Origin: a virus
Virus record (IMG/VR): IMGVR_UViG_3300027690_000123
Location: 1 to 49,990 of that record
Length of the DNA: 49,990 nt
Direction: 5' to 3' (one strand)
Positions 4,375-48,337 of the stretch are shown here, piece by piece (position 1 is the first letter of the stretch; every line of letters begins with the position of its first letter). Both the position numbers and the translations under genes were made by a program. Under the pieces are notes generated by a model. The model had not been told where the DNA came from. It made no database searches and saw only the letters and a program-made list of their open reading frames with translations.

Positions 4375-4392
4375 GGGATTTTGGCCTCATCA

Positions 4393-4682
4393 GGACCATT
4401 GAGCGATTTTGGGGACCATTTCGGCAATGGTCCAGCAATGGTCCAGACTGAAAAGTATCTGTTATCTATTATTATTTTCTTTTTTTAGGACCATAGGACC
4501 ATTACTACATAAAAAAAAGAAAACATTAGTACCCTCAAAACATTTGAAAATTTGGTGAAAAATGGTCCTATGGTCCTGCGCAGCTGTGCTGCAGTTGATT
4601 TTTTGTTGCGTTTCAGCCGGTTAAAAACCCGGCTGCCCCTGGACGATCACCAGGACCATCCGTCCAATAGTCCCCATGGTCC
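4393..4682. repeat. Iteron cluster (10 x GGACCAT, both orientations) around an AT-rich core; putative replication origin
   Basis: GGACCAT at 4393, 4413, 4488, 4496, 4653 and ATGGTCC at 4427, 4438, 4562, 4570, 4676. Perfect 17-bp inverted repeat 4487-4503 / 4561-4577 flanks A/T tracts. Confidence 0.75.
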
Positions 4683-5573
4683 TGTTATGGATCGTCTATG
4701 GTGGACAGCAGGCCGATGCCGTAATAGCGATAGATGCCCCCGACCTTCTCGCTGCGGAAGCGCTTGCGCATGGCCGAGCAGCCGCTGCATGAACTCGCAC
4801 ACGGGGCGGCCCTCCTCCGGATCCAGGTGGTCCTCCTCGAGGACCTGCGCTAAAAACCGTTCCCACTCCGGACACGGCGCATCGATCCCTTTCCACTCGG
4901 CTGCGGCGTGCTTGTGCAGGTAGTCCTTCGGGAGGCCGTCGCGGGACCTTCCGGTCCGCAGGTCGACCACGGCGTTTATACAGGCCAACAGCCAGGGCTT
5001 TCTGTCTATTTCGTCACCGTGGATGGCGATGGCATCCTCGCAGGTGTGGGCTATGCCCAGGCAGTTGTTGCGCCGGCGAGTGATGCGCAGGGCCGAGATC
5101 CGCTGGTTCAAGGCATCGCGCAGGGCGCCCAGGGACCGCTCCCTGGCCGGGTCCTTGCCGTCCATCTCCCGGATCTCGGCGCAGACCCGCACCACCTCGC
5201 GGATGTACTTGGCTACAACGTTCTCGACTGCCACCGGAGCCATCCCCATGGTGTCGATGTCCCAGTAGTGGCCTGTCCACACCATCCAGGCGTCCATGGC
5301 CTTGTTGAAGATGAACTTGCCCCGGTGCAGCTCGCGGAAAAGGATCCCGTCACCCAGCTCGTTCATTCTCAGGCAATCCTGGACAAAGGCGCTCGAGATG
5401 TCGTCGTCGCCGTCGTCGCCCTTGCCGTACTTTTCGGCCTCCTCGGCCTTCCGGGCCTCCACCTGGTCGCGGATTTCCGCCACTTTTTCCTTGCCGGCCG
5501 CCCTTTCGGCCAGCGGGATCACATTGCTCTCCATCGATACCCCCTTATCTTTGTCACCCCGATCGTCAGCCAT
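4647..5573 (-). pseudogene. P4/D5-family primase-helicase, C-terminally truncated
   Basis: D5_N motifs (NELGDG, WMVWTGHYW, LLACINAVVDLRTG, CPEWERFL, FMQRLLG), then the frame becomes non-homologous. The SF3 helicase Walker motifs are absent. Confidence 0.8.
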
Positions 5574-5655
5574 CGAGCGCCAACCCCGTCAAAAACGGCC
5601 CCGATTCCGCGGCCATTCCGTTTTCCGCGCCGAATTGTTTTTTCACCTGGACGCA

Positions 5656-5703
5656 CCGCGGGCGCTGGTGGAAACCGTAAGTCCAGGGTTCCAGGAAGGA
5701 CCC
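5656..5703 (-). other. Lambda-like cos site (cosQ plus cosN-like)
   Basis: Minus strand GGGTCCT-N16-TTACG-N15-CGCGG resembles lambda GGGTCCT-N18-TTACG-N12-CGCGG. The element encodes a GpA-type terminase. Confidence 0.6.
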
Positions 5704-5962
5704 GCGACCCCTGTAGGCCATCGGACCATAGGCCTGTTTTACTTTTGCCGGGGGTGCGGGGGCGCAGCGAAGGCGGCCGGGCACAAAAAAAGCCGCGCGC
5801 GGTCGTCTCGAGCGACCGTCAACGCGGCTATGCGTCAAGGAAAAAAAATGATAAGGAATGCTGTCGATTTGATGTGGGATGGTACTGCATTCCGTGGCAT
5901 CAAAAAGAGTCCGGGATTGATACGATATAGGACAGCTATCCATGGGTTACTCCAATGCCAAA

Positions 5963-5993
5963 TTGAAGTGCATTTGAAGTGCGCTTGAAGTGC
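5963..5993. repeat. Three TTGAAGTGC direct repeats at 11-bp period; probable integrase arm-type sites
   Basis: Copies at 5963, 5974 and 5985, about 70-100 bp from the att core. Confidence 0.65.
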
Positions 5994-6064
5994 AGGAAAT
6001 AGGTTGTTAATAAACCTGTTGCATTTGTAACTTGCTTGATTTACTAAGGAAGGAAATTGAGGGG

Positions 6065-6118: not shown

Positions 6119-7717
6119 TCATTCCTTTTTATTCCTCAAAAAAATCACATTGGATAGGTCTTGGTTTGGTTGGTTGGATAGGTTCTCCATCTCCTTTTTC
6201 ATTTTCTCCTCTTTTTCCACCATCATTCTGGTTCTTTCCTGGGCTGCGGCTTGGACTTGTTTGATCCGGTTCGCTGTGACATCGGCGTACCGTCTTATCG
6301 ATGCGGCGTTCTTATGACCGGTCAACAGTTGGAGTTCAGCCGGGGTGCCCCCATCCTCCATAAACTGGGTGCATGCCGTGTGCTTAACGCCATTGTAAGT
6401 CCAGATGCGTTCGACGCCGGCATCGTCACATGCCTTGTACCAGATGTTGCGAAGCGCCTCGAGGGTGTAGCGGCCCTTTTTCCGTGACCGGGGATTATTG
6501 AAAAAATACTTTGAGCCCGGATCCTTTTTGCAGGCCTCTTTGGCCCATTCCCGATAATTGGGGTGGCAAGGGGTAATGTGAATGGTCGGGTTCTGCCAAT
6601 TCGTTTTGACCGAATTGACATCCACCCGGGCCGAGATCGACCGGCGGATGGTGAACACTTCGTTGATTGGATCGTAATCGACTTTCTGCAGGGCACATGC
6701 TTCGCCGGGGCGGCGGAAATGGTATTTCAGCCACAAGAATATCGACAGGTGTTCGTCAGGGATATTTTTGAATACCGCATCGGCTTCGTCCCGGGAAAGC
6801 CATTTGATCTCGACAGCCTGGATGCCGTAATCCTCAGTCTTTGGAAAAGGGGGAATTTTTTGAATTTTGCCTTTCCGCAAGGCATAGTCCATCATGGTGT
6901 GGAGGGTTGACAAAATGTTGAGGGCGGTCTTGCCGTAGTTTTTCCGATCGGATGTTTCTGGCCGACTGTCCTTTGATTTTTCTTCGTTTTGGGCGATTGT
7001 GCGGCGGATCCACCTGTCGCTGATTTTAATGCCGTATCGGTCCTTGATGATGGTAGCGATCTGCGGGCTTTTGGCGTTGGGGTTGTCGGCATGGATTTTT
7101 AAAATCATCCGCGTCTTCTCATCGCCCGTTTTTTTGGCAGGTTTCTCAAGACCATTGAGGATATGCTCGAGTAGCCTTGTCAGAACGTCCAGATCAATTT
7201 CATGCAGCCGCACGTTATTTTTCTCAAAGAAGGGTTTGATCCATGTCCGATGGTATGACCGGTACGCTTTGACGGTGGCAGGTTTTCTAAATTTCTCGAT
7301 CGCCTTGTTGATCCATTCCTCATAATAATTAGCCACATCGACATAATCAGCTTCCGTGAACTCCTCGATGCTGAACTTACATAGGCCGGCTTTGGCCTCC
7401 TCATATCGATTCCGCATCAAGGTGAGCAATTTTTCGGCTCGTTCATACCCCTGGCATTTTTCCTTGTCGGGGATCAAACGATTTTTGCTGTCCAGGCGGG
7501 GTTTTCCTTTATGGAATTGAAAAGCGGTACAGGGCATCAACTCGCCCTTGTATCGAGAGATCAATCGGTTTTTCCGTTCGATTTCATCATACCAAAACAC
7601 CCGCCATTGGCAGCGATCTGCAGCGTATTGGATTTTGCCTTTCATGCAATCATCCCCTTTAGCTCGATTGGCAAACGCTTTTTCCAACTGTTTAATATAG
7701 ATCTGCTGGGGGGTCAA
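6119..7717 (-). CDS. int: Tyrosine recombinase / integrase
   Basis: FRRPGEACAL (Arg I), YNGVKH (variant HxxR), LTGH, RRY (catalytic Tyr). TTG start with AGGAG RBS. Adjacent to the att core. Confidence 0.93.
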   Translation of the reverse strand: MTPQQIYIKQLEKAFANRAKGDDCMKGKIQYAADRCQWRVFWYDEIERKNRLISRYKGELMPCTAFQFHKGKPRLDSKNRLIPDKEKCQGYERAEKLLTLMRNRYEEAKAGLCKFSIEEFTEADYVDVANYYEEWINKAIEKFRKPATVKAYRSYHRTWIKPFFEKNNVRLHEIDLDVLTRLLEHILNGLEKPAKKTGDEKTRMILKIHADNPNAKSPQIATIIKDRYGIKISDRWIRRTIAQNEEKSKDSRPETSDRKNYGKTALNILSTLHTMMDYALRKGKIQKIPPFPKTEDYGIQAVEIKWLSRDEADAVFKNIPDEHLSIFLWLKYHFRRPGEACALQKVDYDPINEVFTIRRSISARVDVNSVKTNWQNPTIHITPCHPNYREWAKEACKKDPGSKYFFNNPRSRKKGRYTLEALRNIWYKACDDAGVERIWTYNGVKHTACTQFMEDGGTPAELQLLTGHKNAASIRRYADVTANRIKQVQAAAQERTRMMVEKEEKMKKEMENLSNQPNQDLSNVIFLRNKKE

Positions 7718-12868: not shown

Positions 12869-13645
12869 TTACTCTTGGATTCCGGCCCGGATTTTGGCCA
12901 GATCCTTGACGTATCCGTAGATGTGAAGCCCTTTGCTGGAGCAAATCATTTCACCTTGTTCGACACCGATCTCAGCCGCCATATACTCTTGGAGCATGCT
13001 GATGCCGGCCAGGTTGGCGGGGAAGCCACCCCACAAGTCCCAGGAACGTAAATAGGGGAAAAAATGGAGCTGGCCATCTTGGATGCGGGTATCGATGGAT
13101 CTCAGGCAGGGCGGATCGGATAGTAGCAGGTCCGATGGTTGAGCGACCTGGAGCACCATCTGGTTGTTGCGGGGGCCATATTCTTTATAGGTTTTGATGA
13201 TGCGTTCGATCTGGTTGAGTTGGGCGAATTCGGTGGGGGGTTGCACCCGTTCGCCTGTGTCTATTTGTACTTTAAAAAAGATAATCTGTGGTTGTGCTGT
13301 TGCTAAAAACAAATACCCAGCCAGGCGCTCGCCGTAGGTGTATTGCTCTCCAGGCTCCTTATCGGGGGTCATGATGTATTTGGCATAATTCCGGACGTAA
13401 TCCTTGGTCACCGGGGCGGGCATCGGCGAGCTTTCCGGCATCTCGGGGATCAGCGGCAAACCATCAACATCCCTCAAATACGGTTTGGTGATATGAACAT
13501 CCACCCAATCGAGTTCGAGGCGAGTTTGGCCGGCATATGAGCCATGATCGATTTTAAATTCGCGGCCTTGTTTGACGGCAGCATAGATCAATTGGAACCA
13601 GGCGTCGGGCAAGGTGGTTGCGGTAATGATGATCCGGTTAAGCAT
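12869..13645 (-). CDS. thyA: Thymidylate synthase-family protein (archaeal/deltaproteobacterial type)
   Basis: YTYGERL, DPPCL (catalytic Cys), RSWDLWGGFPAN, GLHIY. Start taken at MLNRII. Confidence 0.85.
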   Translation of the reverse strand: MLNRIIITATTLPDAWFQLIYAAVKQGREFKIDHGSYAGQTRLELDWVDVHITKPYLRDVDGLPLIPEMPESSPMPAPVTKDYVRNYAKYIMTPDKEPGEQYTYGERLAGYLFLATAQPQIIFFKVQIDTGERVQPPTEFAQLNQIERIIKTYKEYGPRNNQMVLQVAQPSDLLLSDPPCLRSIDTRIQDGQLHFFPYLRSWDLWGGFPANLAGISMLQEYMAAEIGVEQGEMICSSKGLHIYGYVKDLAKIRAGIQE

Positions 13646-13773
13646 AAGCTCTCCTTTTCTCTTTATTCTTTCTGGCGAGGTATTTCGCCCATCCTGGCGC
13701 CTTTCATCCACTACATTCCGATCAAAGAGCGACAGATAGGCTATCTTGTAACAAACCCAAAAATGGGAAACAA

Positions 13774-22262: not shown

Positions 22263-23366
22263 TTAGCGATTAATCGCGGCTTCCATTTCCTTCATCAGAT
22301 CGTCGGCGGAAATACCCGGGGCTGTGGATGCCGGGGCTGCGGGCGGTGCAACGGGCGGAGTTACTGCCGCCGGAGTGACAGGCGGTGCGGCTGCAGCCGG
22401 GGCCGGAGTCGCTTTGCTGCGAGATAAACGTCTGAGTTCGACCTTTTTCATCTCGCAATCATCCTGTTCGGCGCAATCGAGGCAAACGGGATTGTTTTCA
22501 TTAAAGGCACCGAAACATGCCGGTTGTGCGGGTGCCGCCGGGGGTGCAGGGGGTGCAACTGGAACTCTGGCGGCGGGTGCCGCGGGTGGAGCAACCGGGG
22601 CGGCGGGTGCCGGTGTGGAAATGGCAGTCAAAGGAACGTGGGTTCCATCCACCACCTTGGTTGCGATGGTCAAGCTATCATCCTCCGGGGCCGGCAGCGC
22701 CTTGCTCTCCAGGGCCGGAAGGGGTTCTTTTCCTTCCCATACCAGCTTCAGGTTCTCATAGGTTTCATTCCGAACCAGCAGATCCAAATTCGGAAGCTCG
22801 GCAACGGTGATGGGGAGTGGCACCGGGGTGGGGGTCAATTTGGCCCGGACGGTGTATCTGGTAGAAAGACCTTTTCCGATCTTGTCGATGATAATTTCAC
22901 GGCCGGTTTCAAGGTTCGTGATGTCGCCGATACCGGCATCCTTATCGACCATGATTGAATACAGCTCTAACAAAACAGATTTGGGCATTTCAGCAACTTG
23001 CACGCCGGCGCTGATGTCGTTCATGTCGATGACATTGGCGAAGAACCGGGGTGCCGAGCTGACTTTTTTCAGCCATTCCTTCGTGGCATCGTCCGGTTTT
23101 CTTTTCCACATGGCATCGATGTTGTCGCAGATGGGGCAGGGCTTGTCGAAGCAGATCTTGGGGCAATACACCATGGTTTTGCCTTCAGGGCCGAGGTTCC
23201 AGTGCTTGCCAAAGATTCGGGTGAAATCATCGGCACCTTCCCAGGGCGGGAGAAAGCGCAACACGTTGCGGTTCTCTTTCCAGGTATAGTAATTCGTGTT
23301 GCGACGGGCCATTTCTTCAAGGGCTTTCTCTCTCTGGACGCGGATTTTGTCAAGATTAAGGGACAT
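22263..23366 (-). CDS. Single-stranded DNA-binding protein (gp32-like) with Pro/Ala linker and Cys4 module
   Basis: LRFLPP, HW..CPK..CPICD, ANVID, GREIII.K.GKGL.TRY, acidic tail. Sits between uvsY and the exonuclease gene. Confidence 0.82.
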   Translation of the reverse strand: MSLNLDKIRVQREKALEEMARRNTNYYTWKENRNVLRFLPPWEGADDFTRIFGKHWNLGPEGKTMVYCPKICFDKPCPICDNIDAMWKRKPDDATKEWLKKVSSAPRFFANVIDMNDISAGVQVAEMPKSVLLELYSIMVDKDAGIGDITNLETGREIIIDKIGKGLSTRYTVRAKLTPTPVPLPITVAELPNLDLLVRNETYENLKLVWEGKEPLPALESKALPAPEDDSLTIATKVVDGTHVPLTAISTPAPAAPVAPPAAPAARVPVAPPAPPAAPAQPACFGAFNENNPVCLDCAEQDDCEMKKVELRRLSRSKATPAPAAAAPPVTPAAVTPPVAPPAAPASTAPGISADDLMKEMEAAINR

Positions 23367-23461: not shown

Positions 23462-24181
23462 TTACGATGCTTTGGATATCACCTCCTTGACTCGGTCTTT
23501 CAGACTCATACCGATCTGATCCATCTCTTGCCGCTTGGCTGATCCCAGTTGAATCAACATGTCTTTGCGCTGGATGAAGGCTTCCTTTGCGCCCCGGGCG
23601 ATGTCGGCATCACAGTTGGCCTGGATCAAGGCTTGCTGGGCGGCGGAATATTCCGGACTGGTGATCACTTCCGATTCGATCATCTTTTCAGTGGGTTTTA
23701 TCCCTTCACTGATCAATTTTTCCCGGATTTTCTTCGTCATTTCCGCGCTGACGACCTCCAAACGCAGTTTGGCTGTCATTACCTTTGCCTTGGCTTTGGC
23801 TTCCTCTGTTGCAAAAACGACGAATTTACTGGCTTGGTTTTTAAACTCCGTGTTGAGGTCGCCTTCGTTGATAGCAACCTCTTTGGCGAAATTGTTTTCA
23901 TCCATGCTGATTCCCGGCATAACATGAGGCGGGGCGGTCCCGACATGATCCGAAATATGTTCATGCGCCGGGACTTCCACAGCGACCGGGGGTTCTACGA
24001 CCGTAATCGGAGCCCTGGCTGCCGGGGGAGCTAAAGCCGGTTCGGATTCCGATCCCTCACCTCCAGACGCCGTGCACATTTTTTCGACGATCATTTCTTG
24101 CAACTGATCAGGTGTTGTTTCTTTCGTGTAAGCAATCCCCATTTCCTTGGCTTGGGTTCTGAGTTCTCGTAGCGTGGCCAT
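23462..24181 (-). CDS. uvsY: UvsY-like recombination mediator with N-terminal HeH/Rho-N-like motif
   Basis: INEGDLNTEF.NQ, KPTEKMIESEV..SPEY, AFIQRKDMLIQL; N-terminal LRELRTQAKEMGI. Confidence 0.65.
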   Translation of the reverse strand: MATLRELRTQAKEMGIAYTKETTPDQLQEMIVEKMCTASGGEGSESEPALAPPAARAPITVVEPPVAVEVPAHEHISDHVGTAPPHVMPGISMDENNFAKEVAINEGDLNTEFKNQASKFVVFATEEAKAKAKVMTAKLRLEVVSAEMTKKIREKLISEGIKPTEKMIESEVITSPEYSAAQQALIQANCDADIARGAKEAFIQRKDMLIQLGSAKRQEMDQIGMSLKDRVKEVISKAS

Positions 24182-24216: not shown

Positions 24217-27200
24217 TTATAGATATTGCTTCAACTTACGAATCGCCTCCTTAAACATTTCCTCCTTTTCTCCGGATTCATCGTAAATCATCATTCCAGG
24301 GGTTATGGAGAAAACGACCATTGCTCGATATTTGCCGTGCCAGATCGCCGTGGCGTTCAGTTTCATGATCCCCGAGGACTGCCCGGTAAACGCCGCCGCC
24401 GCTGCGTTGCCCATGGCCAGGATCACATTCGGCGAACATGCGGTGACCAATTTTGATAGCCAAAGGCTGGGACAAATACACCCATCGAGGATCTCTTTCT
24501 GGAGTCTGCCGGATGTTGGACGACAACTGAAAACATGGCCTTGAAATACCTTCCCAGGAGTGATGTCGGCTTCCTCTTTCAAGATCTGCCACATCTTCGT
24601 GTACGCTTTCCCAAAAAATGGTTCACCCTTGGCTTCCTCCCCTGCATTGGGGAATTGGCCCAGCATCATCACCTTGTTATGGGTTGACCATTTCCATGGG
24701 ACGGGGGCATTATCCTTCGTGGATAATGGACACGCCTTGCATGTAAGGTGTTCACCCGAAAGCATCGTGAGGATATCGTCATCGATGGTCATGTCGGCGA
24801 TGATCTCAATGGTTGAACTTGAGAAAACACCCGGGGCATACTCCGCCTTCTGGCTGTACTTTTCAGTTTCATCATAATCGACTGAAGAAACCAAAACATG
24901 TTCCGGTGGGCTACCTTCGTGTGTGACAAATACTGGGTAATTGTCGATGATCCATTTCGTGTTCGGGGCCAGGGATTCAAACCCGCCAGCGTAGGCAATG
25001 GATTCGACAACCCTTTTGTTTACGGCCCTCCTTTCTGTGCGTTTGATGAAATCTTCAAAACTGACAAAGGATTCCCGGCCCCTGCTGACAACGATTTTTT
25101 CACCGGCTATCGATCCAACGCCTTTTACCGAGGCGAATCCGGCAACGATCCTGTCGCCGACGGCTGACCAATTTATGTCGGACAAATTGATGTTCGGGCC
25201 TTCGATCTTGATCCCCAGCCTTTCGGCTTCTTTGATGTATTTCTCAGTCGTTTCGGCTTCTGATACAACCGAGCGCAACAAAGCGGTCATAAATTCCACC
25301 GGGTAATAGTACTTTGCCCAGGCGGTCAGATAGCTGATGTACGAATAACAAGCGGCATGAGCCTTGTTAAAACCATACCGGCCAAATTTGACGATGTTAT
25401 CGTAAATGGTGTTGGCGACGGTTTCTGTCATCCCGACGGTTTTTGCACAGCCATCGATGAAGGTTTTCCGTTTTTCTTCGAGTAGGGCAGCTCCTTTCGA
25501 TTTACTGATGATCTTCCGCATGTTGTCGGCTTCCGGCCAGGTAAATCCGGCCAAGTCAACAAACTGGCGCATGATCTGTTCTTGGAAAATGGGCAAACCA
25601 AGGGTTTGTTCCGTGATTTTCGTTTCGGCTTCGTGCAGATAACTGACTTCCTCTTTCTTGTGATAACGATTGACGTAACTATCGACCATCCCCGAATCTA
25701 AGGGGCCAGGACGATACAATGCGTTGATATGAACCAGGGTTTCAAAGGACTGTATCGGAGTGAGTTTTTGGCATACCCCGGTGATTCCGGGTGACTCAAA
25801 CTGGAAAAAGCCCGCCGTGTGGCCATCGGAGAATTGTTTCAACACCTCGGCATCTGTTGGTTCGATGGTGAAAAAATCGATCACAACGCCTGTCCGTTCT
25901 CTCACCAGGGCGGCTGTGTCACCCAAAACCGAAAGGTTGCTGAGGCCCAGGAAATCAAACTTCAGCAATCCGAAGTGTTCCACTTCACCCATGTGCCAGT
26001 TGATGGCTGATGCAGCTTTGCGTTTTTCCAATACGCCTCGATGGGTAAAACCATCTTCCGAAAGGATGATGCCGCCGGCATGAATCCCTTTGGACCGGAG
26101 CTGACCATCCAACCGGATCGCGTGTTTAACGATCAGAGGATGGGATTCGGCAAAGGCGGCAAGTTCACCGGAGGCGAAATTTTCCTCCAGGTTCAGATCC
26201 TTGTCGATCTTTTTTGAGATTTCGTTGACTTGAAGAATGGGAATTGAAAATACTCGGGCGACATCTCGAAAAGCCGATTTACCGTGCATGACGGTCGATG
26301 TGCTGATCTGGCAGACGTTCTGTTCGCCGTAGGTTTCCTTGACGTACTTTATAACCTTGTCGCGGTCGTCACCAGCGAAGTCGAAATCGATATCAGGCAT
26401 GTCGATGCGATCTTCACGAAGGAACCGTTCGAAATACAGTTCGTGCTTGATTGGATCCAGGGCGGTGATCCCCAATAAATAAGCAATCAGAGAACCTCCG
26501 GCGGATCCACGGCCAAACCCGCAAAGGATTTTGCTTTTCTTGGCGTAATTAATTACATTCCAACCAAGTAAAAAATATCGAATGGCACCGATTTTTGAAA
26601 CGACTCCCAATTCGTGCTTCAGGCGTTTGAGATAGGTTGTCTCATCCAACCCTCGCCCGGCTATTTTGGTTTTCCACCCTTCTTTGCAGAGTTTCACAAG
26701 GAAGCTGGCTTCATTCTCCACCTTATGGGTGACCAACGGGGGCAGGGCAAAATCCAATTTGGGGATGTCGATGCCACTGCATTTATCAACGATCTCCTGA
26801 GTCGATACAAATGCGGCATGTAAAAATTCCAAATCAAAATAGCCGCCTTCGATCCAAGGTTTGAAGGAATGAATCATTTCGGATTGAGTTTTCAGATACA
26901 GGCCTGCCATGTCACCGTTGAGGAAGCTGAAGCGTCCTTCATCGTTGATGTTCGCATTCGTCTGAATGGCGAGCAGAACGTCATGGGTCAGGGTATCTTC
27001 CTCCCGGGGATAGTGGGCGTCGTTTGCCACGACGGGTTTGATGTCGAAAAGTTTGGAAAGTGAAAAAGCCCGATTATTTATCTCAAACTGAACATCGATC
27101 CAATGGGGTTGGATTTCCAAATAAAAATCTCCGCCATAGGTAGCTTTCATCTTTGTGACAATGTGAACATAATTGGGATGTTTCAAAAGACCGGCCGCAC

Positions 27201-27600
27201 AAGCAGAGGTAAGAATACAGTCTTCGAATTTGAAAATCTGCTCGATGGATAACAGGGGCCGGTAATACATCTGTTCGTTTGCGATGGTGAGCTGCTTAAA
27301 AATGGACTGCAGCCCGTTCCAATTTTTGGCCAACACAATCAAATGGTATCGTTCCATTCGTTCGCCTTTGGGCGGCCGATAAAACGGGTCATCGGCTACA
27401 TAAAATTCACAGCCAATGATAGGGATGATTCCAGCGGCTTTCGCTGCTTTGTAAAATTCCAATGCGGCGCCACATGATCCGTGATCGGTAAGGGCCAAGG
27501 CTTTGAAACCTTTTTTCACGGCCGTTTCAACCCAGGTCGGTGGGTTGCCCAGGCCATCGAGCAGGCTGTGGGAACTATGACAATGCAAATGGGTAAACAT
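24217..27600 (-). CDS. dnaE: DNA polymerase III alpha (family C) fused to a C-terminal family-4 UDG-like domain
   Basis: HLHCHSSHSLLDG PHP domain, GRGSAGGSL, MPDIDFDF, GLLKFDFLGL, YGFNKAHA. C-terminal CKACPL..MLGQFP..GEPFFG..SCRP..C..ILAMG. AGGAG RBS before MFTH. Confidence 0.95.
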   Translation of the reverse strand: MFTHLHCHSSHSLLDGLGNPPTWVETAVKKGFKALALTDHGSCGAALEFYKAAKAAGIIPIIGCEFYVADDPFYRPPKGERMERYHLIVLAKNWNGLQSIFKQLTIANEQMYYRPLLSIEQIFKFEDCILTSACAAGLLKHPNYVHIVTKMKATYGGDFYLEIQPHWIDVQFEINNRAFSLSKLFDIKPVVANDAHYPREEDTLTHDVLLAIQTNANINDEGRFSFLNGDMAGLYLKTQSEMIHSFKPWIEGGYFDLEFLHAAFVSTQEIVDKCSGIDIPKLDFALPPLVTHKVENEASFLVKLCKEGWKTKIAGRGLDETTYLKRLKHELGVVSKIGAIRYFLLGWNVINYAKKSKILCGFGRGSAGGSLIAYLLGITALDPIKHELYFERFLREDRIDMPDIDFDFAGDDRDKVIKYVKETYGEQNVCQISTSTVMHGKSAFRDVARVFSIPILQVNEISKKIDKDLNLEENFASGELAAFAESHPLIVKHAIRLDGQLRSKGIHAGGIILSEDGFTHRGVLEKRKAASAINWHMGEVEHFGLLKFDFLGLSNLSVLGDTAALVRERTGVVIDFFTIEPTDAEVLKQFSDGHTAGFFQFESPGITGVCQKLTPIQSFETLVHINALYRPGPLDSGMVDSYVNRYHKKEEVSYLHEAETKITEQTLGLPIFQEQIMRQFVDLAGFTWPEADNMRKIISKSKGAALLEEKRKTFIDGCAKTVGMTETVANTIYDNIVKFGRYGFNKAHAACYSYISYLTAWAKYYYPVEFMTALLRSVVSEAETTEKYIKEAERLGIKIEGPNINLSDINWSAVGDRIVAGFASVKGVGSIAGEKIVVSRGRESFVSFEDFIKRTERRAVNKRVVESIAYAGGFESLAPNTKWIIDNYPVFVTHEGSPPEHVLVSSVDYDETEKYSQKAEYAPGVFSSSTIEIIADMTIDDDILTMLSGEHLTCKACPLSTKDNAPVPWKWSTHNKVMMLGQFPNAGEEAKGEPFFGKAYTKMWQILKEEADITPGKVFQGHVFSCRPTSGRLQKEILDGCICPSLWLSKLVTACSPNVILAMGNAAAAAFTGQSSGIMKLNATAIWHGKYRAMVVFSITPGMMIYDESGEKEEMFKEAIRKLKQYL

Positions 27601-27652
27601 GACTGCTCCTTGGGTTTTGGACGAAAAAATGTTCGGTTTAAACGCAAGAAAG

Positions 27653-27680
27653 CGATGCAGGGCCGCTAAGCCCTGCATCG
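27653..27680. terminator. Stem-loop between the AT-hook gene and dnaE
   Basis: CGATGCAGGGC-CGCTAA-GCCCTGCATCG. Confidence 0.55.
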
Positions 27681-27695: not shown

Positions 27696-28388
27696 TTAGC
27701 TGGTCGCCGGGGCGGCGGCCCGATCGATAACTTCGATCTGGTGCGGCATGAAATCGGCGTTGGTTTTTGTCTCCTGATGCACGCCACGGAAACACTCGTA
27801 TTTCTCCGAGTAGCAGGAAACGACAAACAGTGTGCCGTTGAACTTGCTGCGGGGGTTGACAATCTTGACGATGTCACCGGCGCTGACGACCAGATCGGCG
27901 TCCTTGGGATCGATAGCAGATGCCAATTTGAGTTTGCCGTCGGCATCTTTCTTGAACAAAGCCGTCTTCAGCGCCGTATGTTGCCGGGGAGCGGATACTT
28001 TCACGGTGCCGGCTTCGGCCGGGGTTTCCGCTTTCGTGGGGGCGGCTTCTTTCTTGGTCCTGGGGCGGCCGCGTTTTTTCGCGGGGGCTGGGACCGGCGC
28101 TGCTGCCAGTTCCGGTTCGGCAGTCAGTGTTTCTTCTGCTGCCTTGGCCGCCGCTTCTTCCTCCAGGGCTTTCTCTGCCGCAACTTCGGCGGCTTCGAGT
28201 ACCGGAGCAGGCAAATCAATCGGCGGTTCCTCGGTCACCACTTCCGCGGTCACCGGGGCGGTTTCAAGTACCGGGGTGGCTCCGACTTCTTGAGCGGCTT
28301 GGCATTCTTTGTTGAGCTGACACTTTTTGCAATCGGCGTCGTTGGCGTCAAAAAGTTTTCCGAAACAAGGGGCTGTTGCTGTCGTCAT
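27696..28388 (-). CDS. Hypothetical DNA-binding protein: Cys4 module, Ala/Glu linker, AT-hook
   Basis: PCFGKLFDANDADCKKCQLNKEC; KKRGRPRTKK; AGGAG RBS. Confidence 0.75.
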   Translation of the reverse strand: MTTATAPCFGKLFDANDADCKKCQLNKECQAAQEVGATPVLETAPVTAEVVTEEPPIDLPAPVLEAAEVAAEKALEEEAAAKAAEETLTAEPELAAAPVPAPAKKRGRPRTKKEAAPTKAETPAEAGTVKVSAPRQHTALKTALFKKDADGKLKLASAIDPKDADLVVSAGDIVKIVNPRSKFNGTLFVVSCYSEKYECFRGVHQETKTNADFMPHQIEVIDRAAAPATS

Positions 28389-33556: not shown

Positions 33557-36500
33557 CTAAATATCGATTTGAGCTTCGAGCGAATTTTTGGTTATGAATT
33601 CGGCCCGGGGTTCGACTTGGTCACCCATCAAAATCTGGAAAAAATCATCGCAATCCGAATCGCTGACATCCACCTGAATCAAAATCCGGTTTTCGGGGTT
33701 CATTGTTGTTTTCCAGAGTACCTCCGGCGGCATCTCGCCCAACCCTTTGAACCGGGAAACGACGGTATTCAGCCTGCTGTTTTTGAATTTGTCCAAGATC
33801 TCCTTGAGCTGTTTGTCGTTGAAGGCCCAGGCGGTCGTCTTACCGGCCTTGACCCGATAAAGGGGCGGCTGGGCGATATACAAATAGCCGCCGAGGATCA
33901 GTTCGGGCATGTGGCGGAAAAACAAGGTCAGCAGCAAAGTCCGGATATGACTATTGTGAACAAAAACACCTGATCCTTTGCCAGCACATACAAGAAAATT
34001 GTGATATTTTTCGACGGTAAGGTCATAAACAGGTATCGGTTCGGGTAGTTTCACTAATCGGATTGCCTTGACTTTGTGATTGTAATCTCTCGAAAAAAGC
34101 GCCGCTTCGATTACATTCCGGAAGCCCATTTTTTTCATCATATTTTCATATTTAGGAACTCCTGTTTTGGGTCGTTCTGATTCATAGGTAAAGCGGTTCA
34201 AAATACCATGTACTCTAAGTGCTCGGTTAATTACATTCACAATCCGAGTGGCTTGCATACGAAAAGCGATTGTTTTGTCCTCCCATTGTTTTTTGACATT
34301 TTTTGAAATGGATTCACCTCCACCATTCTTTAACCACTCTTGGTGTTTCTTTTTCATGTGGTTTTGATAATCGGGATCTTTCCACATCCGGATGTTCCGC
34401 TCCGTGGCAATGGCTCCGTGACAACCAGATTCATTATATTTTTGAAAAACCTCATAAACTTTATCATATACTCCTTCTCGGTGGAGCTGACGAATTCGCT
34501 CGCGTTGAAGTTCTGATCCGTTGTAATCGGTTACCAATGAAGATTTTTCCGCATGTAACGATCGATGCTTATTCGGGGCCATTGGCTCAAGATTCTCGGG
34601 AGTGTTGTTTTGAGGGTTTCCATCCTTGTGATGGACATCCAATCCATCGATATTATAAAAACATGAAGCAACATATCGATGGGTGGGGTATTGGTTTTTG
34701 TCAGCCGGAATATAAAGTTCTTCCCTGTTGGGGTTATAAGTGTTCTCTCCATTCAGCCGCCAAGTCATACGCATAAGCGACATGCCGGGAGTGAGTTTGT
34801 CGGTGCGGATAAATTCACCTGTGCGTAACATGAAGGGATGATTTTCAGTGGCTCGTATCGTACTCCCATCGTCAAGCATAATCTCATAGATCTCAGAGAC
34901 ATAACGGGTGATCCTCGCTGAATGTGCAACGGCTGGGATGTGACGACCATTGCCATCATCAGCCCACACCCAAAACCGCGTTGATTCTTTGGGGTAAAGG
35001 GTCGCAAGCTTCTCCATTGTCCGGTAGGTACCATCAAGCAGTTTAATTTTTGTGTCACCGGCCAAACAACCGTCCACATCGGCATCGGTCATGATGATCA
35101 CCTTATGGTATCTGAGGCGTCTAAGATCGACCGAACCGGTCCCGATTCCTAACCCTAAAGCCGCAATGATGGTTTGCACCTCTGTGTTTTTGAGAATGGT
35201 TTTAAGGTTGGCTTTCTCGCAGTTGAGAATCTTGCCTCTTAGCGGCAAGATCGCTTGATTTCGACGATCTCGGGCCTGTTTGGCAGAACCTCCCGCGGAG
35301 TCGCCTTCTACCAGAAACAGTTCGCGTTCGGCGGGGTTTGAGCTTTGGCAGTCGGTGAGTTTGCCAGGCAAGGTGTCTGCGCCCAGGTTGGCTACCTTCC
35401 GGGCGTTGTCTCTGGCCCGCTGGGCAGCCAGACGGGCCTTGGTTGCGTTGATGATCCGGTCGGCGATCAGTTTGAGCTGGTCTTTTTTGGCATTCTCAAA
35501 CCAATCGTTGAGCCCTTGGTAAACGATTGTACCTGTCACCGTTTGGGCGATCGATGTGCCAAGCTTGGCCTTGGTCTGCCCTTCGAACTGGGGTTGCGGC
35601 ACCCGGACGCTGACGACTGCAGCAAGCCCTTCTCGAATATCGTCGGCGGTGGGTTGCTCGAGGTTCTTCGGAATGTAGTTGGCCAGGAATTTAACGGCGG
35701 CCCGGGTCAATCCGGTTTTGAAGCCGGTCAAATGGGTGCCGCCTTCAATGGTGTTGATGTTGTTACAAAAGCTCCGGATTTCTTCGTGCGGGTTTTTCGT
35801 CCATCGAAGGGCAATGAAGCAATAAATGCCACCTTCGTTTCCGGATAACTGGATCGCGGCCGGCTGGATCTCTTTGTCGGAGCTGATGGCATCGACGTAA
35901 TCCACCAGACCGGCTTTGCTGATGAATTTGACCTCTTTCCCTTTGGAGCTGACGAAAATGATCTTCAGCCCGGGGTTGAGATAAGAAAGTTCCTTCAGCC
36001 GGGTGGCGATGATCTTTTCGTCGAAAACCGTGGTTTCAAATATGGTAGGATCAGGCCAGAATTGAACGCGGGTTCCGGTGCGGGTTCTCAATGTGGGTAC
36101 TTTGAGTAAACCCGTAACGGGGGTGCCGCGTTCATACGTTTGCTGGTATTCGGCTTTGTCCCGCCAAACGGTGACGAACAGTTTTTCCGACAAAGCGTTG
36201 ACGCAAGAGATACCGACGCCATGGAGTCCGCCAGAGGCACCATAGGCTTTCTCATCGAATTTACCGCCGGCGTGGAGCTTGGTCATAACGACCTGAACGG
36301 CGGGGACACCCTCTGTCGGATGGATGGCAACGGGAATGCCGCGGCCGTTATCTTCAACCGATATGCTGCCGTCAAGGTGATGAATGATGGTGACTTCGTC
36401 GCAATAACCGGCCATGGCTTCATCAATGGAGTTATCGACGGCCTCCCAAACCAGATGGTGCAACCCGGTGGGCCCGGTCGATCCGATAAACATGCCAGGC

Positions 36501-36562
36501 CGTGACCGAACAGGTTCGAGGCCTTCGAGGATTCTGATTGATTCCGCTGAATATTCAGGCAT
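33557..36562 (-). CDS. gyrB: Type IIA topoisomerase B subunit (GyrB) with intein
   Basis: LEGLEPVRSRPGMFIG, EAVDNSIDE, GGLHGVG, EGDSAGG, PLRGKILN, IMTDADVDG|intein|SHIRTLLLT, RFKGLGEM. Confidence 0.95.
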   Translation of the reverse strand: MPEYSAESIRILEGLEPVRSRPGMFIGSTGPTGLHHLVWEAVDNSIDEAMAGYCDEVTIIHHLDGSISVEDNGRGIPVAIHPTEGVPAVQVVMTKLHAGGKFDEKAYGASGGLHGVGISCVNALSEKLFVTVWRDKAEYQQTYERGTPVTGLLKVPTLRTRTGTRVQFWPDPTIFETTVFDEKIIATRLKELSYLNPGLKIIFVSSKGKEVKFISKAGLVDYVDAISSDKEIQPAAIQLSGNEGGIYCFIALRWTKNPHEEIRSFCNNINTIEGGTHLTGFKTGLTRAAVKFLANYIPKNLEQPTADDIREGLAAVVSVRVPQPQFEGQTKAKLGTSIAQTVTGTIVYQGLNDWFENAKKDQLKLIADRIINATKARLAAQRARDNARKVANLGADTLPGKLTDCQSSNPAERELFLVEGDSAGGSAKQARDRRNQAILPLRGKILNCEKANLKTILKNTEVQTIIAALGLGIGTGSVDLRRLRYHKVIIMTDADVDGCLAGDTKIKLLDGTYRTMEKLATLYPKESTRFWVWADDGNGRHIPAVAHSARITRYVSEIYEIMLDDGSTIRATENHPFMLRTGEFIRTDKLTPGMSLMRMTWRLNGENTYNPNREELYIPADKNQYPTHRYVASCFYNIDGLDVHHKDGNPQNNTPENLEPMAPNKHRSLHAEKSSLVTDYNGSELQRERIRQLHREGVYDKVYEVFQKYNESGCHGAIATERNIRMWKDPDYQNHMKKKHQEWLKNGGGESISKNVKKQWEDKTIAFRMQATRIVNVINRALRVHGILNRFTYESERPKTGVPKYENMMKKMGFRNVIEAALFSRDYNHKVKAIRLVKLPEPIPVYDLTVEKYHNFLVCAGKGSGVFVHNSHIRTLLLTLFFRHMPELILGGYLYIAQPPLYRVKAGKTTAWAFNDKQLKEILDKFKNSRLNTVVSRFKGLGEMPPEVLWKTTMNPENRILIQVDVSDSDCDDFFQILMGDQVEPRAEFITKNSLEAQIDI
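33953..35068 (-). mobile_element. Intein (372 aa) with HNH homing endonuclease
   Basis: Starts CLAGDT, has block B ATENHPF, HNH motif THRYVA..VHHKDGNPQNNTPENL, and ends VYDLTV..HNF..VFVHN followed by +1 Ser. Confidence 0.93.
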
Positions 36563-44367: not shown

Positions 44368-44402
44368 TTTCAAGCATGGAACTGGAAAGGAGTCAAGCAA
44401 AA

Positions 44403-44816
44403 ATGAATGACCGCTTGTTTCTCGAGTACCAAGCCCATTTCGATGCGGCCCATTATTTAAAGGGGTATTTGGGACCGTGTGCGAATTTGCATGGGCATCG
44501 TTGGGAGGTTCGGATCGGCATCTCAGGTACTGTGTTGAATGAGGTGGGGATCCTGGTCGATTTTCGGGATCTCAAAGATATGATGAAGGCGGTCTTGCCT
44601 GACCATCAATGCCTCAACGATCTTGCCGAGTTTGCCGAGATGAACCCTACTGCCGAAAATCTGGCCGGATATCTGTTCCGCCGGATCGATGATTACATCC
44701 AGGCTTGCTTTTGCAATGATGGATTCAAAGAGGCGGCCCGACCTGTTCGTCTGGACTGGGTCCGGGTGTATGAATCGCCTGGGGCTTGCGCCTTGGTAGA
44801 AAGGGGGGCGGAATGA
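44403..44816 (+). CDS. queD: 6-carboxy-5,6,7,8-tetrahydropterin synthase
   Basis: FDAAHYL, CANLHGH, VDF, NPTAENLA, VYESP. Confidence 0.93.
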   Translation: MNDRLFLEYQAHFDAAHYLKGYLGPCANLHGHRWEVRIGISGTVLNEVGILVDFRDLKDMMKAVLPDHQCLNDLAEFAEMNPTAENLAGYLFRRIDDYIQACFCNDGFKEAARPVRLDWVRVYESPGACALVERGAE

Positions 44817-45469
44817 CAAACCCCCGCGATGTTCGATTCGACGGCGATAGATATCCTGTCGTTGAAATGTTCACCTCGGTTCAAACAGAAGGCGCCCGTT
44901 GCGGTACCTTAGCTCATTTCCTTCGTCTTGGTGGATGCAATTTCAATTGCCCTTTCTGTGACACTCCTTTGGATAAATTCGAGATGCTGTCCCCGGCTGA
45001 AATTGCAAGCCACCTTTGTGATCTGGAATGGAAACGAAGCACCGGTGGTTGGGTTGTCATCACGGGTGGGGAGCCGATGGTGCACAATTTGTGGCCGCTC
45101 TTGGCCCAAATCGGGAATCGGTTTTCCATCGCTATGGAGAGCAATGGCAGTCTTCTTCATCAGGTGTCTGAAAAACAACCCGAGGTGCTGCGGTGGATCG
45201 ACTGGCTGACTATTTCCCCGAAAACATTTATTCCAAACCATCTGCTGATGAAATACGCCAGCGAGGTAAAATATGTCGTTCCGGATCATGAATCGTTGAT
45301 CTCCCAAAACGAAGATTTGATGTTTTCGTTGGCGACCGTAAAACCTTTCGTCTTTGTTCAGCCCGAGTTTAACAATCCCGAGGCGGTCGAACGCTGTCTT
45401 GTGTGGATGTCGAACTACACTAAGCTTCGGCTGAGTGTCCAGTCTCACAAGTATATCGGTTTGAGGTGA
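44813..45469 (+). CDS. queE: 7-carboxy-7-deazaguanine synthase (radical SAM)
   Basis: FTSVQTEG, FLRLGGCNFNCPFCDT, ITGGEP, ESNG, ISPK, RLSVQSHK. Confidence 0.93.
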   Translation: MTNPRDVRFDGDRYPVVEMFTSVQTEGARCGTLAHFLRLGGCNFNCPFCDTPLDKFEMLSPAEIASHLCDLEWKRSTGGWVVITGGEPMVHNLWPLLAQIGNRFSIAMESNGSLLHQVSEKQPEVLRWIDWLTISPKTFIPNHLLMKYASEVKYVVPDHESLISQNEDLMFSLATVKPFVFVQPEFNNPEAVERCLVWMSNYTKLRLSVQSHKYIGLR

Positions 45470-45473
45470 TGAA

Positions 45474-46082
45474 ATGAGCGTACAAGAGGTGATGAAAAAT
45501 CCGGCGCCGTCTTTGGATGATATGCGATCGGCGCTGAAATCGATGCTGCACTTCATGGGAGAGGATCCGGAGAGGGAAGGGCTTCTCGAAACACCGGACA
45601 GGATCCTCAAGTCTTGGACAGAGCTTTACGCCGGCTATAAGCAATCGCCGGAGGAAATTCTGTCGAAACGTTTTTCCGAAACCGATGGCTACGATCAGCT
45701 TGTGCTGCTTAAAAACATCGGTTTTTTTTCGATGTGCGAACATCATAATCTGAGCTTCATCGGCGTCGCCCATGTTGGGTATCTCCCGGGCGACTGTGTC
45801 GTGGGGATCAGCAAGCTGGCCCGTCTGGTGGATTGCCACGCCCGGCGTCTTCAGATCCAAGAACGTATGACCAAATCCATCGCCGATGATGTCATGAAAC
45901 ACCTGGCGCCACGTGGGGTAGCTGTCGTGGTCGAAGGGCAACACCTGTGCATGCAGGCCCGCGGCATCAAAAAGATTGGCAGCAGCATGGTCACCTCCGC
46001 AATGGAGGGGGTATTCAAGAACAACGCGGGTGGGTGCAAGGATGAATTTCTGACGCTGGTGAACATGTCGCCGGCGTATTGA
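45474..46082 (+). CDS. folE: GTP cyclohydrolase I
   Basis: REGLLETPDR, SMCEHH, GISKLAR, RRLQIQERMT, HLCMQARG. Confidence 0.95.
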   Translation: MSVQEVMKNPAPSLDDMRSALKSMLHFMGEDPEREGLLETPDRILKSWTELYAGYKQSPEEILSKRFSETDGYDQLVLLKNIGFFSMCEHHNLSFIGVAHVGYLPGDCVVGISKLARLVDCHARRLQIQERMTKSIADDVMKHLAPRGVAVVVEGQHLCMQARGIKKIGSSMVTSAMEGVFKNNAGGCKDEFLTLVNMSPAY

Positions 46083-46099
46083 TTTGCCTTTAAACACAA

Positions 46100-46111
46100 G
46101 TAATTAATTAC
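46100..46111. promoter_or_regulatory. Palindromic operator-like site upstream of queC
   Basis: Perfect GTAATTAATTAC between folE and queC. Confidence 0.7.
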
Positions 46112-46128
46112 ATTGAAAGGTTTGATTG

Positions 46129-46824
46129 ATGGAAAAGAAAAAAGCGGTTGTCGTTTTATCGGGGGGTCAGGATTCCACCACTGCGCTGTTTTGGGCAAAA
46201 ACGATGTTTGATGAGGTTCTGGCGGTGTCTTTCGATTATGGCCAGCGCCATAAGATCGAGCTGCAGTCGGCTGTCATCGTGGCGGCCAAGGCCGGTGTGC
46301 CCCATGAGATCGTCGATGCGAAGTTTATTAACGCCCTGGCGGCCAATGCCTTGACCCGGAAAGACATCGATGTCGAGTGCCCGGAGGGGAAATTGCCAAC
46401 GACCTTTGTCGATGGCCGGAATCTGTTTTTCCTGTCGATGGCTGCGGTCTACGCGAAGCAGCGGGGGATCCACAATCTGGTGACCGGGGTGTGCCAAACC
46501 GATTACAGCGGCTATCCGGACTGCCGGATGGATTTCATCGCCTCCCTTCGAAACACCCTGGTCTATGCCATGGATTATGAGTTCAGCATCCACGTCCCGA
46601 TGATGTTTTTGACCAAGGCCCAAGAGGTTGAGCTGGCCGTCAGCCTGGGTGTGGATTGCCTGGATGCTCTGTCCCAAAGTCACACCTGCTACGAGGGGGT
46701 ATTCCCGCCGTGCGGCAAGTGTCCGGCCTGCAAGCTTCGCTCAAAAGGGTTCAAAGAGGCGGGGTATTCAGACCCGTTGATCGTGCGTGCCAACCTGGCG
46801 GGGTCTTACAAGTCGCGGATGTAA
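46129..46824 (+). CDS. queC: 7-cyano-7-deazaguanine (preQ0) synthase
   Basis: LSGGQDS, YGQRH, TFVDGRN, GYPDCR, TCY..CGKCPAC. No N-terminal Gat domain. Confidence 0.95.
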   Translation: MEKKKAVVVLSGGQDSTTALFWAKTMFDEVLAVSFDYGQRHKIELQSAVIVAAKAGVPHEIVDAKFINALAANALTRKDIDVECPEGKLPTTFVDGRNLFFLSMAAVYAKQRGIHNLVTGVCQTDYSGYPDCRMDFIASLRNTLVYAMDYEFSIHVPMMFLTKAQEVELAVSLGVDCLDALSQSHTCYEGVFPPCGKCPACKLRSKGFKEAGYSDPLIVRANLAGSYKSRM

Positions 46825-46838
46825 CAATAACGATCGGA

Positions 46839-47501
46839 ATGGCTATGGGAAAAGACATCGAGCTGTCGCTTGACATCGCTATGGGTAACCTGGGGTGGGT
46901 CTGTTTCAAAGACAGCGTACCCCAGGCGTGTGGGGTGGTTTCTCCTTCGATTCCAAAGGATCTCGCTTCGTTGAAGGGAAAGAAAAAGCTTTCAGTCAGG
47001 GAGCAAAACGTCATCCTTCTCGAGCAATTGATCGATGGGTTTGACCGGGTGCTGGTCCGGCACCATCCAGCCCTGGTTGTGGGGGAGGCTCCTCCAGGCG
47101 GCGCCCAGGATGCCAATGCGGCGGTGAAGCTCAACATGGCGTTGGCGGTCGTGGTGACGGTCTGCTTTGTTCATGGGGTGCCGTATCAGTGGTGTTCGCC
47201 TCTGGATGTGAAAAGGGCGACTGCAGGTGCCGATACGGCCTCCAAAGAACAAATCATGGACTGGGCCCTCGATCGGTTCGGCGGCGAAAAGGATGTTCAA
47301 GAGGTCTTGATCAAAAATGGGAAATGCGCCGGCAAGGTCACCCGCCGGCTGAAATACAATTTCCTGGGGCGGTGGATCCCCGGCGGAAAGTTCGAACACA
47401 TTGCCGACGCCTGCGGGGCTTATGTGGCGGTGAAAAATCAACCAACGAGCCGGCCAGGTGCCCGGGGTTATCGAAACAAGCCCAGGCGGCTGGGGCAATG
47501 A
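46839..47501 (+). CDS. ruvC: RuvC-like (RNase H fold) nuclease/resolvase
   Basis: LSLDIA..NLG, VVGEAP, SPLDVKRAT.G...ASKEQI, EHIADA. Confidence 0.75.
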   Translation: MAMGKDIELSLDIAMGNLGWVCFKDSVPQACGVVSPSIPKDLASLKGKKKLSVREQNVILLEQLIDGFDRVLVRHHPALVVGEAPPGGAQDANAAVKLNMALAVVVTVCFVHGVPYQWCSPLDVKRATAGADTASKEQIMDWALDRFGGEKDVQEVLIKNGKCAGKVTRRLKYNFLGRWIPGGKFEHIADACGAYVAVKNQPTSRPGARGYRNKPRRLGQ

Positions 47502-47511
47502 AAGGGCGGAT

Positions 47512-48336: not shown

Positions 48337-48337
48337 A

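Follow-up and report, generated by a model that had tools for sequence, protein, structure and literature searches.

A family-4 uracil-DNA glycosylase fold with replaced motif residues at the C-terminus of a phage DnaE polymerase

Record IMGVR_UViG_3300027690_000123 of the IMG/VR virus database was analysed from position 1 to position 49,990; this whole stretch of 49,990 nucleotides is referred to as the window. On the minus strand, at 24217–27600, it carries a gene which appears to encode the replicative polymerase, of the C family (DnaE type), of a temperate Desulfosarcina phage of about 120 kb. In this protein a uracil-DNA glycosylase (UDG) fold of family 4, the iron-sulfur (Fe-S) type, takes the place of both the OB fold and the tau-binding C-terminal domain (CTD) of cellular DnaE, and a short flexible linker appears to join it to the polymerase. 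Judged from its sequence, the domain lacks the residues needed for recognition of uracil and for hydrolysis, and a non-excising role in the handling of DNA appears to be the most economical reading. We are inclined, if only by a little, to regard it as a non-excising DNA-binding module, which by analogy would correspond, within the C family, to the inactive UDG domain of N4-like PolA. This preference is based on the loss of the glutamate, asparagine and histidine of the canonical motifs, while the fold, the four cysteines, the stacking phenylalanine, the basic charge and the selection on the domain have been kept.

Architecture of the polymerase and state of its UDG motifs

Residues are numbered according to the translation of the mechanically predicted open reading frame (ORF; 24217–27678, minus strand), which has 1153 amino acids; subtraction of 26 leads to the probable protein of 1127 amino acids. 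The gene and its parts are as follows:

24217–27600, minus strand: DnaE-UDG polymerase gene (ORF translation, AAGGAG sequence, start of the relatives, TIGR00594)
27103–27591, minus strand: PHP domain, residues 30–192 (Pfam PF02811, E 1e-31)
25441–26703, minus strand: polymerase III alpha core and fingers, residues 326–746 (PF07733, E 4e-73; PF17657, E 1e-42)
24961–25215, minus strand: (HhH)2 duplex-binding domain (HHH_6), residues 822–906 (PF14579, E 3e-18)
24754–24960, minus strand: linker, residues 907–975, replacing the OB fold (full-length AlphaFold2 model, linker alignment)
24220–24753, minus strand: family-4 UDG-fold domain, catalytically degenerate, residues 976–1153 (PF03167; 1ui0, 4zbx and 1vk2; AlphaFold2; Foldseek)

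Translation most likely begins at the ATG at 27600, giving 1127 amino acids, since an AAGGAG sequence is present 6 nt upstream and all relatives begin with MFTHLHCH; relatives of 1123–1128 amino acids start at the corresponding methionine. The mechanical start, an ATG at 27678, extends the frame over 27601–27678 and is probably wrong. The stop codon is at 24217–24219, and the span 24217–24770 comprises residues ~970–1153 together with this codon.

Membership in the DnaE type of the C family is indicated by the PHP domain and the Pol3 core and fingers (Pfam E values from 1e-31 to 4e-73) and by the (HhH)2 domain, all of which are present. The NCBIfam model for DNA polymerase III alpha, TIGR00594, covers residues 27–916 with 789 bits (cut-off 434), and with Pfam the DNA_pol3_alpha domain was located at residues 326–578 and the fingers at 581–746. 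Searches of the protein with Pfam and NCBIfam gave no match for an OB fold or a tau-binding CTD, and matches to DnaE models end at about residue 916. In an alignment of 35 fusion proteins the metal-ligand columns of the PHP domain (His/Glu/Cys/Asp) were invariant or nearly so; it is possible that this domain supplies an intrinsic proofreading activity.

A first-pass annotation of the window had proposed that a family-4 UDG fold replaces the OB and C-terminal domains, and Pfam, AlphaFold2 and Foldseek agree on this. PF03167 was found at residues 1000–1150 (E 2e-14, 54 bits, cut-off 24), and with phmmer the last ~205 residues matched the family-4 enzymes 1ui0 (E 6e-14), 4zbx, 1vk2 and 1l9g, the first three with E values of 6e-14 to 1e-12. 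Prediction of the structure of residues 950–1153 with AlphaFold2, from an alignment of 90 sequences, yielded a UDG fold with a predicted local distance difference test (pLDDT) score of 94.4 and a predicted template modelling score (pTM) of 0.90. The top matches of this model in Foldseek were 1vk2 and 1ui0, with template modelling (TM) scores of 0.80–0.85 and E values of about 4e-12, followed by UdgX; the structure of the phiLo PolA-UDG (9qhs) was at rank 40. Within the domain, the following motifs were located:

24730–24741, minus strand: CKAC, first two predicted 4Fe-4S ligands C980 and C983 (invariant in 90 UDG domains; equivalent to C13 and C16 of 1ui0)
24646–24660, minus strand: motif A, GQFPN in place of GE(A/G)PG, Glu to Gln at 1008 (alignments; invariant in the seven closest relatives)
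24517–24540, minus strand: GHVFSCRP, with His 1048 in place of the uracil-reading Asn and with the third Cys ligand C1052 (alignments)
24472–24483, minus strand: GCIC, fourth Cys ligand C1069 (invariant column C120 of alignment A1; equivalent to C100 of 1ui0)
24295–24309, minus strand: motif B, SITPG in place of xxHP(A/S), His to Thr at 1126 (alignments)

These motifs had been read correctly in the first-pass annotation, both as regards the retained cysteines of CKAC, SCRP and GCIC and the replacement of Glu, Asn and His in GQFPN, GHVFSCRP and SITPG. The phmmer alignment with the Thermus thermophilus enzyme 1ui0 placed C980, C983, C1052 and C1069 opposite the predicted cluster ligands C13, C16, C84 and C100, in columns which are invariant or nearly so; Q1008 corresponds to E41, H1048 to N80 and F1021 to the stacking F54. 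T1126 occupies the column of the motif-B His in the alignments of UDG domains. Besides the stacking Phe, also Glu 1014, Pro 1010 and Pro 1127 are kept. Thirty canonical DnaE-fused UDG domains possess ten invariant columns (C, C, E, P, G, N, C, G, H, P), seven of which are retained in the window (C, C, P, G, C, G, P), the changes being exactly E, N and H. The isoelectric point (pI) of the domain is about 8.9 and its net charge +5, compared with a median pI of 8.65 for canonical fused domains and of 9.1 for stand-alone enzymes; the basic nature of active family-4 UDGs is preserved.

It would seem very improbable that the domain is still a uracil-DNA glycosylase which operates with non-canonical residues. 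Some UDG families work without the canonical acid of motif A, and the domain has an unaltered fold together with its Fe-S ligands, its stacking Phe, Pro 1010 and Pro 1127; however, E, N and H, which are invariant in the 30 canonical fused domains, have all been replaced together. For UdgX, the mutation E52Q reportedly abolishes activity. The scores with curated family-4 models are far below the cut-offs (TIGR00758, 54.1 bits versus 125.3; Arch_udg, 56.7 versus 250), and the exchange of E for Q is one which has been used as a study mutant in UdgX (PDB 6ajq, E52Q).

The full-length AlphaFold2 model (pLDDT 89.3, pTM 0.76) contains a stretch of about 20 residues of low confidence, residues ~917–936, between the (HhH)2 domain and the UDG module; pLDDT values were 61–64 at model residues 891–910 and below 50 at 903–905. 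The model suggests that the UDG domain is a flexibly tethered module. Directly before the UDG fold, a motif PG[VL][FY] is conserved across the whole fusion family; in the window its form is ..AEYAPGVFS, while the Rhizobium phage and many canonical fusions have ELLPG[VL][FY]. The position of the motif is approximately that of the internal clamp-binding motif in E. coli DnaE.

Distribution and descent of the fusion, and selection on the UDG domain

In the first-pass annotation the gene was considered a strong candidate for an undescribed system. This could not be upheld, since the architecture was reported in 2014 (PMC3919608) and is abundant in phages, phage-plasmids and metagenomes; the gene of the window encodes a polymerase-UDG fusion of a known and very widespread kind, in a form particular to its lineage. 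An exhaustive HMMER search with the UDG domain against 1.84 billion cluster representatives (clusters of 50% identity) gave 3082 matches, and among the best 150 of these, about 60 were DnaE proteins or fragments of DnaE with a C-terminal UDG domain, nearly all of them reading GE(A/G)PG, N..KC.P and HP(A/S). Relatives with these replaced residues were, within the best matches of this search, each part of a DnaE and in no case stand-alone. Several DnaE-UDG homologues with lengths of 1280–1640 amino acids contain inteins. A pattern scan of IMG/VR yielded 78 loci; 69 of 77 UDG matches shared one ORF with DnaE, and most of these 69 carry GExPG, N..KC.P and HP(A/S). Few contexts of family-4 UDG-like domains in viral metagenomes are thus commoner than this fusion. 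Two otherwise canonical IMG/VR fusions (L052 and L074) have GQDPG as motif A, which resembles the motif GQDPY of family-1 UNG.

The relatives P0002–P0007 show the same architecture as the window, in a single polypeptide. By tblastn, an extended DnaE was detected in phage-plasmids of ~105–120 kb from Cupriavidus, Aeromonas, Acinetobacter, Rhizobium, Sinorhizobium and Methylobacterium, and also in Rhizobium phages; the copies of phage-plasmids and Rhizobium phages are annotated simply as dnaE. The UDG domain alone gave four weak matches only when compared with phages by tblastn, and a scan of viral contigs with the single protein as query gave no match. The search with an alignment of the clade produced five fragments, which were too incomplete for judging their content of que genes.

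A phylogenetic tree was constructed by a quick search from 46 DnaE cores, from which the UDG or OB tails had been removed, with three OB-bearing phage DnaEs as outgroups. All fusions formed one clade against the outgroups (support by the Shimodaira-Hasegawa-like approximate likelihood ratio test, SH-aLRT, 99). The rewired clade of Desulfosarcina prophages, with eight rows (the window, P0002–P0005 and P0007–P0009), was nested within the fusions with a support of 100 and was the sister, again with a support of 100, of P0014, a canonical fusion which has kept Glu, Asn and His. It follows that the replaced motifs arose from a fused UDG of the canonical type. The seven closest relatives all share GQFPN and ITPG, with either His or Tyr at position 1048; deeper members of the clade of the window read SQKID/T/SPG, SDFPL/H/SPG and GENAT/N/SPS.

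Other lineages have proceeded further. The C-terminus of the DnaE of Rhizobium phage RHph_X66 is a homologue of UDG (hhalign probability 99.5) which is too diverged for BLAST; all four Cys are gone, likewise E, N and H. The copies of the Cupriavidus, Aeromonas and Acinetobacter phage-plasmids are recognised by a UDG hidden Markov model (E 2e-20 to 2e-37), and their motifs are gone. The copy on plasmid pMT1 of Yersinia pestis CO92 is UDG-like, with motifs and Cys ligands gone; it is located at 56784–57254 (minus strand) in an open frame of only 184 amino acids. No DnaE segment was present there in ORFs of at least 100 amino acids within the 3.5 kb examined, and the polymerase gene of this plasmid may be disrupted. 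By the evidence of the motifs, loss of the glycosylase residues on a kept fold is recurrent in the DnaE-UDG family, the change of the motif-B His to Ser or Thr being the most widely shared.

Purifying selection on the UDG domain of the window is as strong as that on the polymerase core. In comparison with the gene of P0002 (95% identical), the ratio of non-synonymous to synonymous substitution rates (dN/dS) was 0.049 (core), 0.055 (linker) and 0.051 (UDG domain), the last value from 51 synonymous and 14 non-synonymous differences. Against more distant relatives the domain was 69–72% and the core 77–81% identical, with synonymous sites saturated. Since the selection equals that on the polymerase core, the domain should be functional. 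One could also think of a decaying, functionless remnant of a once active UDG domain, because the catalytic residues are lost and other lineages erode progressively, including their Cys ligands. Such a remnant is hardly credible in view of a dN/dS of 0.05, equal to that of the core, a model with a pLDDT of 94, and the presence of the full-length domain in every relative, with no truncated DnaE devoid of the domain in the clade.

Genomic context and possible roles of the domain

The first-pass annotation had described the phage as one that also makes 7-deazaguanine DNA, and a gene cluster for such a modification is indeed present:

44376–49177, plus strand: queD-queE-folE-queC-queF-dpdA cluster for preQ1-type 7-deazaguanine DNA modification (Pfam, PHROG, NCBIfam)

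QueC (E 9e-74), QueF and a radical SAM protein were identified with Pfam, DpdA with phrog_887 (E 2e-42), and QueD was also found; QueF-II (preQ1 synthase) and FolE scored above the NCBIfam cut-offs. The proposed tie between the UDG domain and this modification, for which co-occurrence with que and dpdA genes had been the suggested check, fails in both directions outside the lineage of the window. QueC was present in 6–7 of 25 long IMG/VR records with canonical, predicted-active fusions, and DpdA (phrog_887) was absent from four complete genomes with degenerate domains, namely RHph_X66 and three phage-plasmids, the genome of the window serving as control (1e-44). A specific correlation with que/dpdA was rejected on these grounds.

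Within the lineage the association is found regularly. Homologues of DpdA with about 80% identity occur on contigs equal in length to those which carry P0003, P0005 and P0006, and a prophage in a Desulfosarcina metagenome-assembled genome which contains P0004 has DpdA (84% identity) and QueC (69%) at ~33 kb from the polymerase gene. The close relatives of the window are one syntenic phage lineage, and since all belong to one phage group, the association with dpdA reflects shared ancestry and inherited synteny. A prophage of D. variabilis Montpellier (4.55–4.63 Mb) has kept the block from RNR to GyrB with an intact rewired DnaE-UDG; no primase, DnaB, helicase or que/dpdA genes were found in the 39 kb beyond GyrB of this prophage, which is probably truncated or rearranged and is hence uninformative on the link to que genes. 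The UDG domain is not specifically connected with the 7-deazaguanine modification of the phage.

Partners of base excision repair were considered as a marker of glycosylase activity and showed no pattern. An ATP-dependent ligase was present in 1 of 14 phages with canonical fusions and in all four phage-plasmids or phages with degenerate domains, and was not found in the genome of the window; an Xth-type AP endonuclease was detected in none of the genomes with canonical fusions or degenerate domains which were examined.

Instead of having lost its ligand, the pocket could have been neofunctionalised, so that it flips a base and reads or excises a base other than uracil (5-hydroxymethyluracil, hmU, or guanine versus deoxy-preQ1, dPreQ1), which would couple replication to DNA modification. 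The fixation of GQFPN, ITPG and His/Tyr 1048 in relatives whose domains are 64–73% identical, the dN/dS of 0.05 and the retention of the stacking Phe and of Glu 1014 are what one would expect of such a pocket; dpdA occurs in every informative member of the close lineage, and a thymidylate-synthase-like gene of uncertain specificity is present at 12869–13711. Nevertheless, the pockets of deeper clade members are different (SQKID/T/SPG, SDFPL/H/SPG, GENAT/N/SPS), so that no common specificity is conserved, and no carboxylate or other obvious general base is found in place of the Glu. In addition, degenerate domains without DpdA exist in four complete genomes, canonical domains also co-occur with QueC, and the co-occurrence in the lineage is one of shared ancestry. 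We therefore consider a new pocket rather unlikely. Its more special form, a rebuilt pocket in the Desulfosarcina phage clade, with the Fe-S cluster kept, which would make the replicase a polymerase with a built-in sensor for DNA modification of the preQ1 type or of pyrimidines, appears quite unlikely.

Also with regard to processivity the surroundings of the gene are of interest. No match for a beta clamp (PF00712) or a clamp loader (PF13177) was obtained in the whole provirus of 119.7 kb. The negative result covers PF00712 and PF13177 only, since the model for clamps of the gp45 type (PF09116) gave no match even with its control. The earlier statement that neither clamp nor clamp loader is visible holds, by two Pfam models, for the beta clamp and its loader. 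The polymerase gene is located in a conserved replication-recombination block which encodes a CobS/CobT-like protein, an AT-hook protein, DnaE-UDG, a UvsY-like protein, gp32, a 5'-3' exonuclease and UvsX. All relatives examined have a conserved gene directly downstream of DnaE-UDG (23462–24181, minus strand, in the window), which matches only PHROGs without an assigned function. It was considered as a hidden clamp, and this was rejected, since the leads point to UvsY-like recombination mediators instead; such an identity fits the neighbouring genes for gp32 and UvsX/RecA. The upstream gene at 27696–28388 gave no usable lead when it was inspected as a hidden clamp. The gp32-type single-stranded DNA-binding protein (SSB; 22263–23366, minus strand) and the AT-hook protein (27696–28388, minus strand) share a mini-domain CFG..C..C....C, which is borne on long Pro/Ala-rich linkers and is a candidate docking tag.

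A role in the docking of proteins, by which the UDG fold would link the polymerase to SSB, helicase-primase and the beta clamp of the host, with contact to DNA being secondary, is compatible with several of these features. The domain stands where cellular DnaE has its tau-binding CTD (PMC3919608), its gene is within the conserved block, the Cys4 mini-domains of SSB and of the AT-hook protein need a docking partner, and the PG[VL][FY] linker motif is sited like the internal clamp-binding motif of E. coli DnaE; furthermore, vaccinia D4 UDG acts through protein contacts, as cited in PMC3201878. On the other hand, the basic charge typical of DNA-binding UDGs has been kept, and the linker motif in the clade of the window (QKAEY...) is off the clamp-binding consensus. 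A docking module is in our opinion an improbable explanation.

Our preferred reading, a DNA-binding module without excision, could be pictured as follows. In canonical fusions an intact UDG domain would survey single-stranded template in front of the polymerase for uracil and remove it, in analogy to what is known from cryo-electron microscopy of PolA-UDG. The module would occupy the place of the OB fold, which handles the single-stranded template in cellular DnaE. In the lineage of the window it would have been kept for holding or guiding the template DNA without excision, and may add processivity. Several points weigh against this picture. A literature search yielded no publication dealing with what the DnaE-UDG fusion does, and no biochemistry for any DnaE-UDG protein. 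Family-5 UDGb is active without a polar catalytic residue in motif A, and loss of the Glu is consequently no proof of inactivity. The invariance of GQFPN, ITPG and His/Tyr 1048 would fit a pocket with a new ligand as well. A purely structural role would not demand that the four Cys be retained, as their loss from the Rhizobium phage copy indicates, and processivity could be supplied by the beta clamp of the host.

Some further features of the window may be mentioned. The GyrB gene (33557–36562, minus strand) is split by an intein with an HNH endonuclease, and the GyrB genes of relatives occur with or without inteins. The best model for the thymidylate-synthase-like protein (12869–13711, minus strand) is the archaeal-type TIGR03283 with 112 bits, below the cut-off of 175; the protein matches only the C-terminal half of PF00303 and could be a ThyA or a pyrimidine hydroxymethylase. 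The region 1–6000 has a G+C content of ~0.61, compared with ~0.49 in the phage, contains fragments of a gpA-type terminase and a D5_N primase-like ORF, and adjoins an integrase gene (6119–7717); it is probably a host flank or another mobile element.

Comparison with known systems

Timinskas, Balvociute, Timinskas and Venclovas (Nucleic Acids Research 2014; PMC3919608) described a DnaE in which the OB fold and the CTD are replaced by PF03167, and which was reported from Y. pestis and S. enterica, where it belongs to phage-plasmids of the pMT1/pHCM2 type. Their paper records the architecture only and discusses neither function nor motifs (PMC3919608). The order of PHP domain, Pol3 core, (HhH)2 and UDG is the same in the window, whose core falls inside the same fusion clade; in contrast to the pMT1 CO92 copy, which is without motifs and Cys, the window has kept its four Cys, and the motifs which replace the canonical ones are conserved and distinct.

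The divergence of the C-termini of viral C-family polymerases was noted by Kazlauskas and Venclovas in 2011 (PMC3201878), and in the same year the UDG domains of SPO1/T5-type PolA were proposed as intrinsic processivity factors (PMC3201878). A role in processivity, as it may be considered for the window by analogy, is thus an idea dating back to that work (PMC3201878). The DnaE-UDG family constitutes a natural series, from canonical motifs, through Fe-S ligands kept with catalytic residues replaced, as in the window, to the loss of everything, as in the Rhizobium phage examined and most phage-plasmid copies. This series, which extends to the examined pMT1-type plasmid and the Acinetobacter and Aeromonas phage-plasmids, could allow the repair role of a polymerase-tethered glycosylase to be separated from a structural role, and with that the processivity hypothesis of 2011 to be tested. 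The case of the window by itself is an incremental variant.

Vaccinia D4 resembles family 1, is catalytically active and exists as a protein of its own, which acts through A20. The UDG domain of the window is covalently fused, and no A20-like bridge is evident. The likeness which may be proposed, and which the first-pass annotation had invoked, is that of a UDG fold serving the processivity of a polymerase, as cited for D4 in PMC3201878. With the stand-alone family-4 enzymes (T. thermophilus UDGA, 1ui0; T. maritima, 1vk2/1l9g; S. tokodaii, 4zbx) and with UdgX, the window has in common the fold, the four Cys, the stacking Phe and a basic pI; the stand-alone family-4 enzymes have Glu, Asn and His, whereas the window has Gln, His and Thr and scores below the NCBIfam cut-off.

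A UDG fold on a replicative phage polymerase is likewise found in the SPO1-like and SP15-like PolA-UDGs, and the domain of phiLo (9qhs) is of type IV. The SP15-like PolA-UDG excises deoxyuridine (dU) from the template ahead of synthesis (Missoury et al., Nucleic Acids Research 2026, PMC13697223), and the template's 5' end is channelled towards the UDG domain (PMC13697223). These proteins belong to the A family and possess an N-terminal UDG with intact motifs and demonstrated activity, whereas the protein of the window is of the C family, with a C-terminal UDG and replaced motifs; they are associated with thymine (T)-modified genomes, the phage of the window with 7-deazaguanine genes. According to Czernecki et al. 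(cited in PMC13697223), the UDG domain of N4-like PolA has lost its catalytic residues. In terms of function no analogy is closer, since in both cases a polymerase-fused UDG fold was kept after catalytic loss. The N4-like PolA is, however, of the A family, with an N-terminal UDG and an independent fusion, and the relation of the window to it is one of analogy, not of membership.

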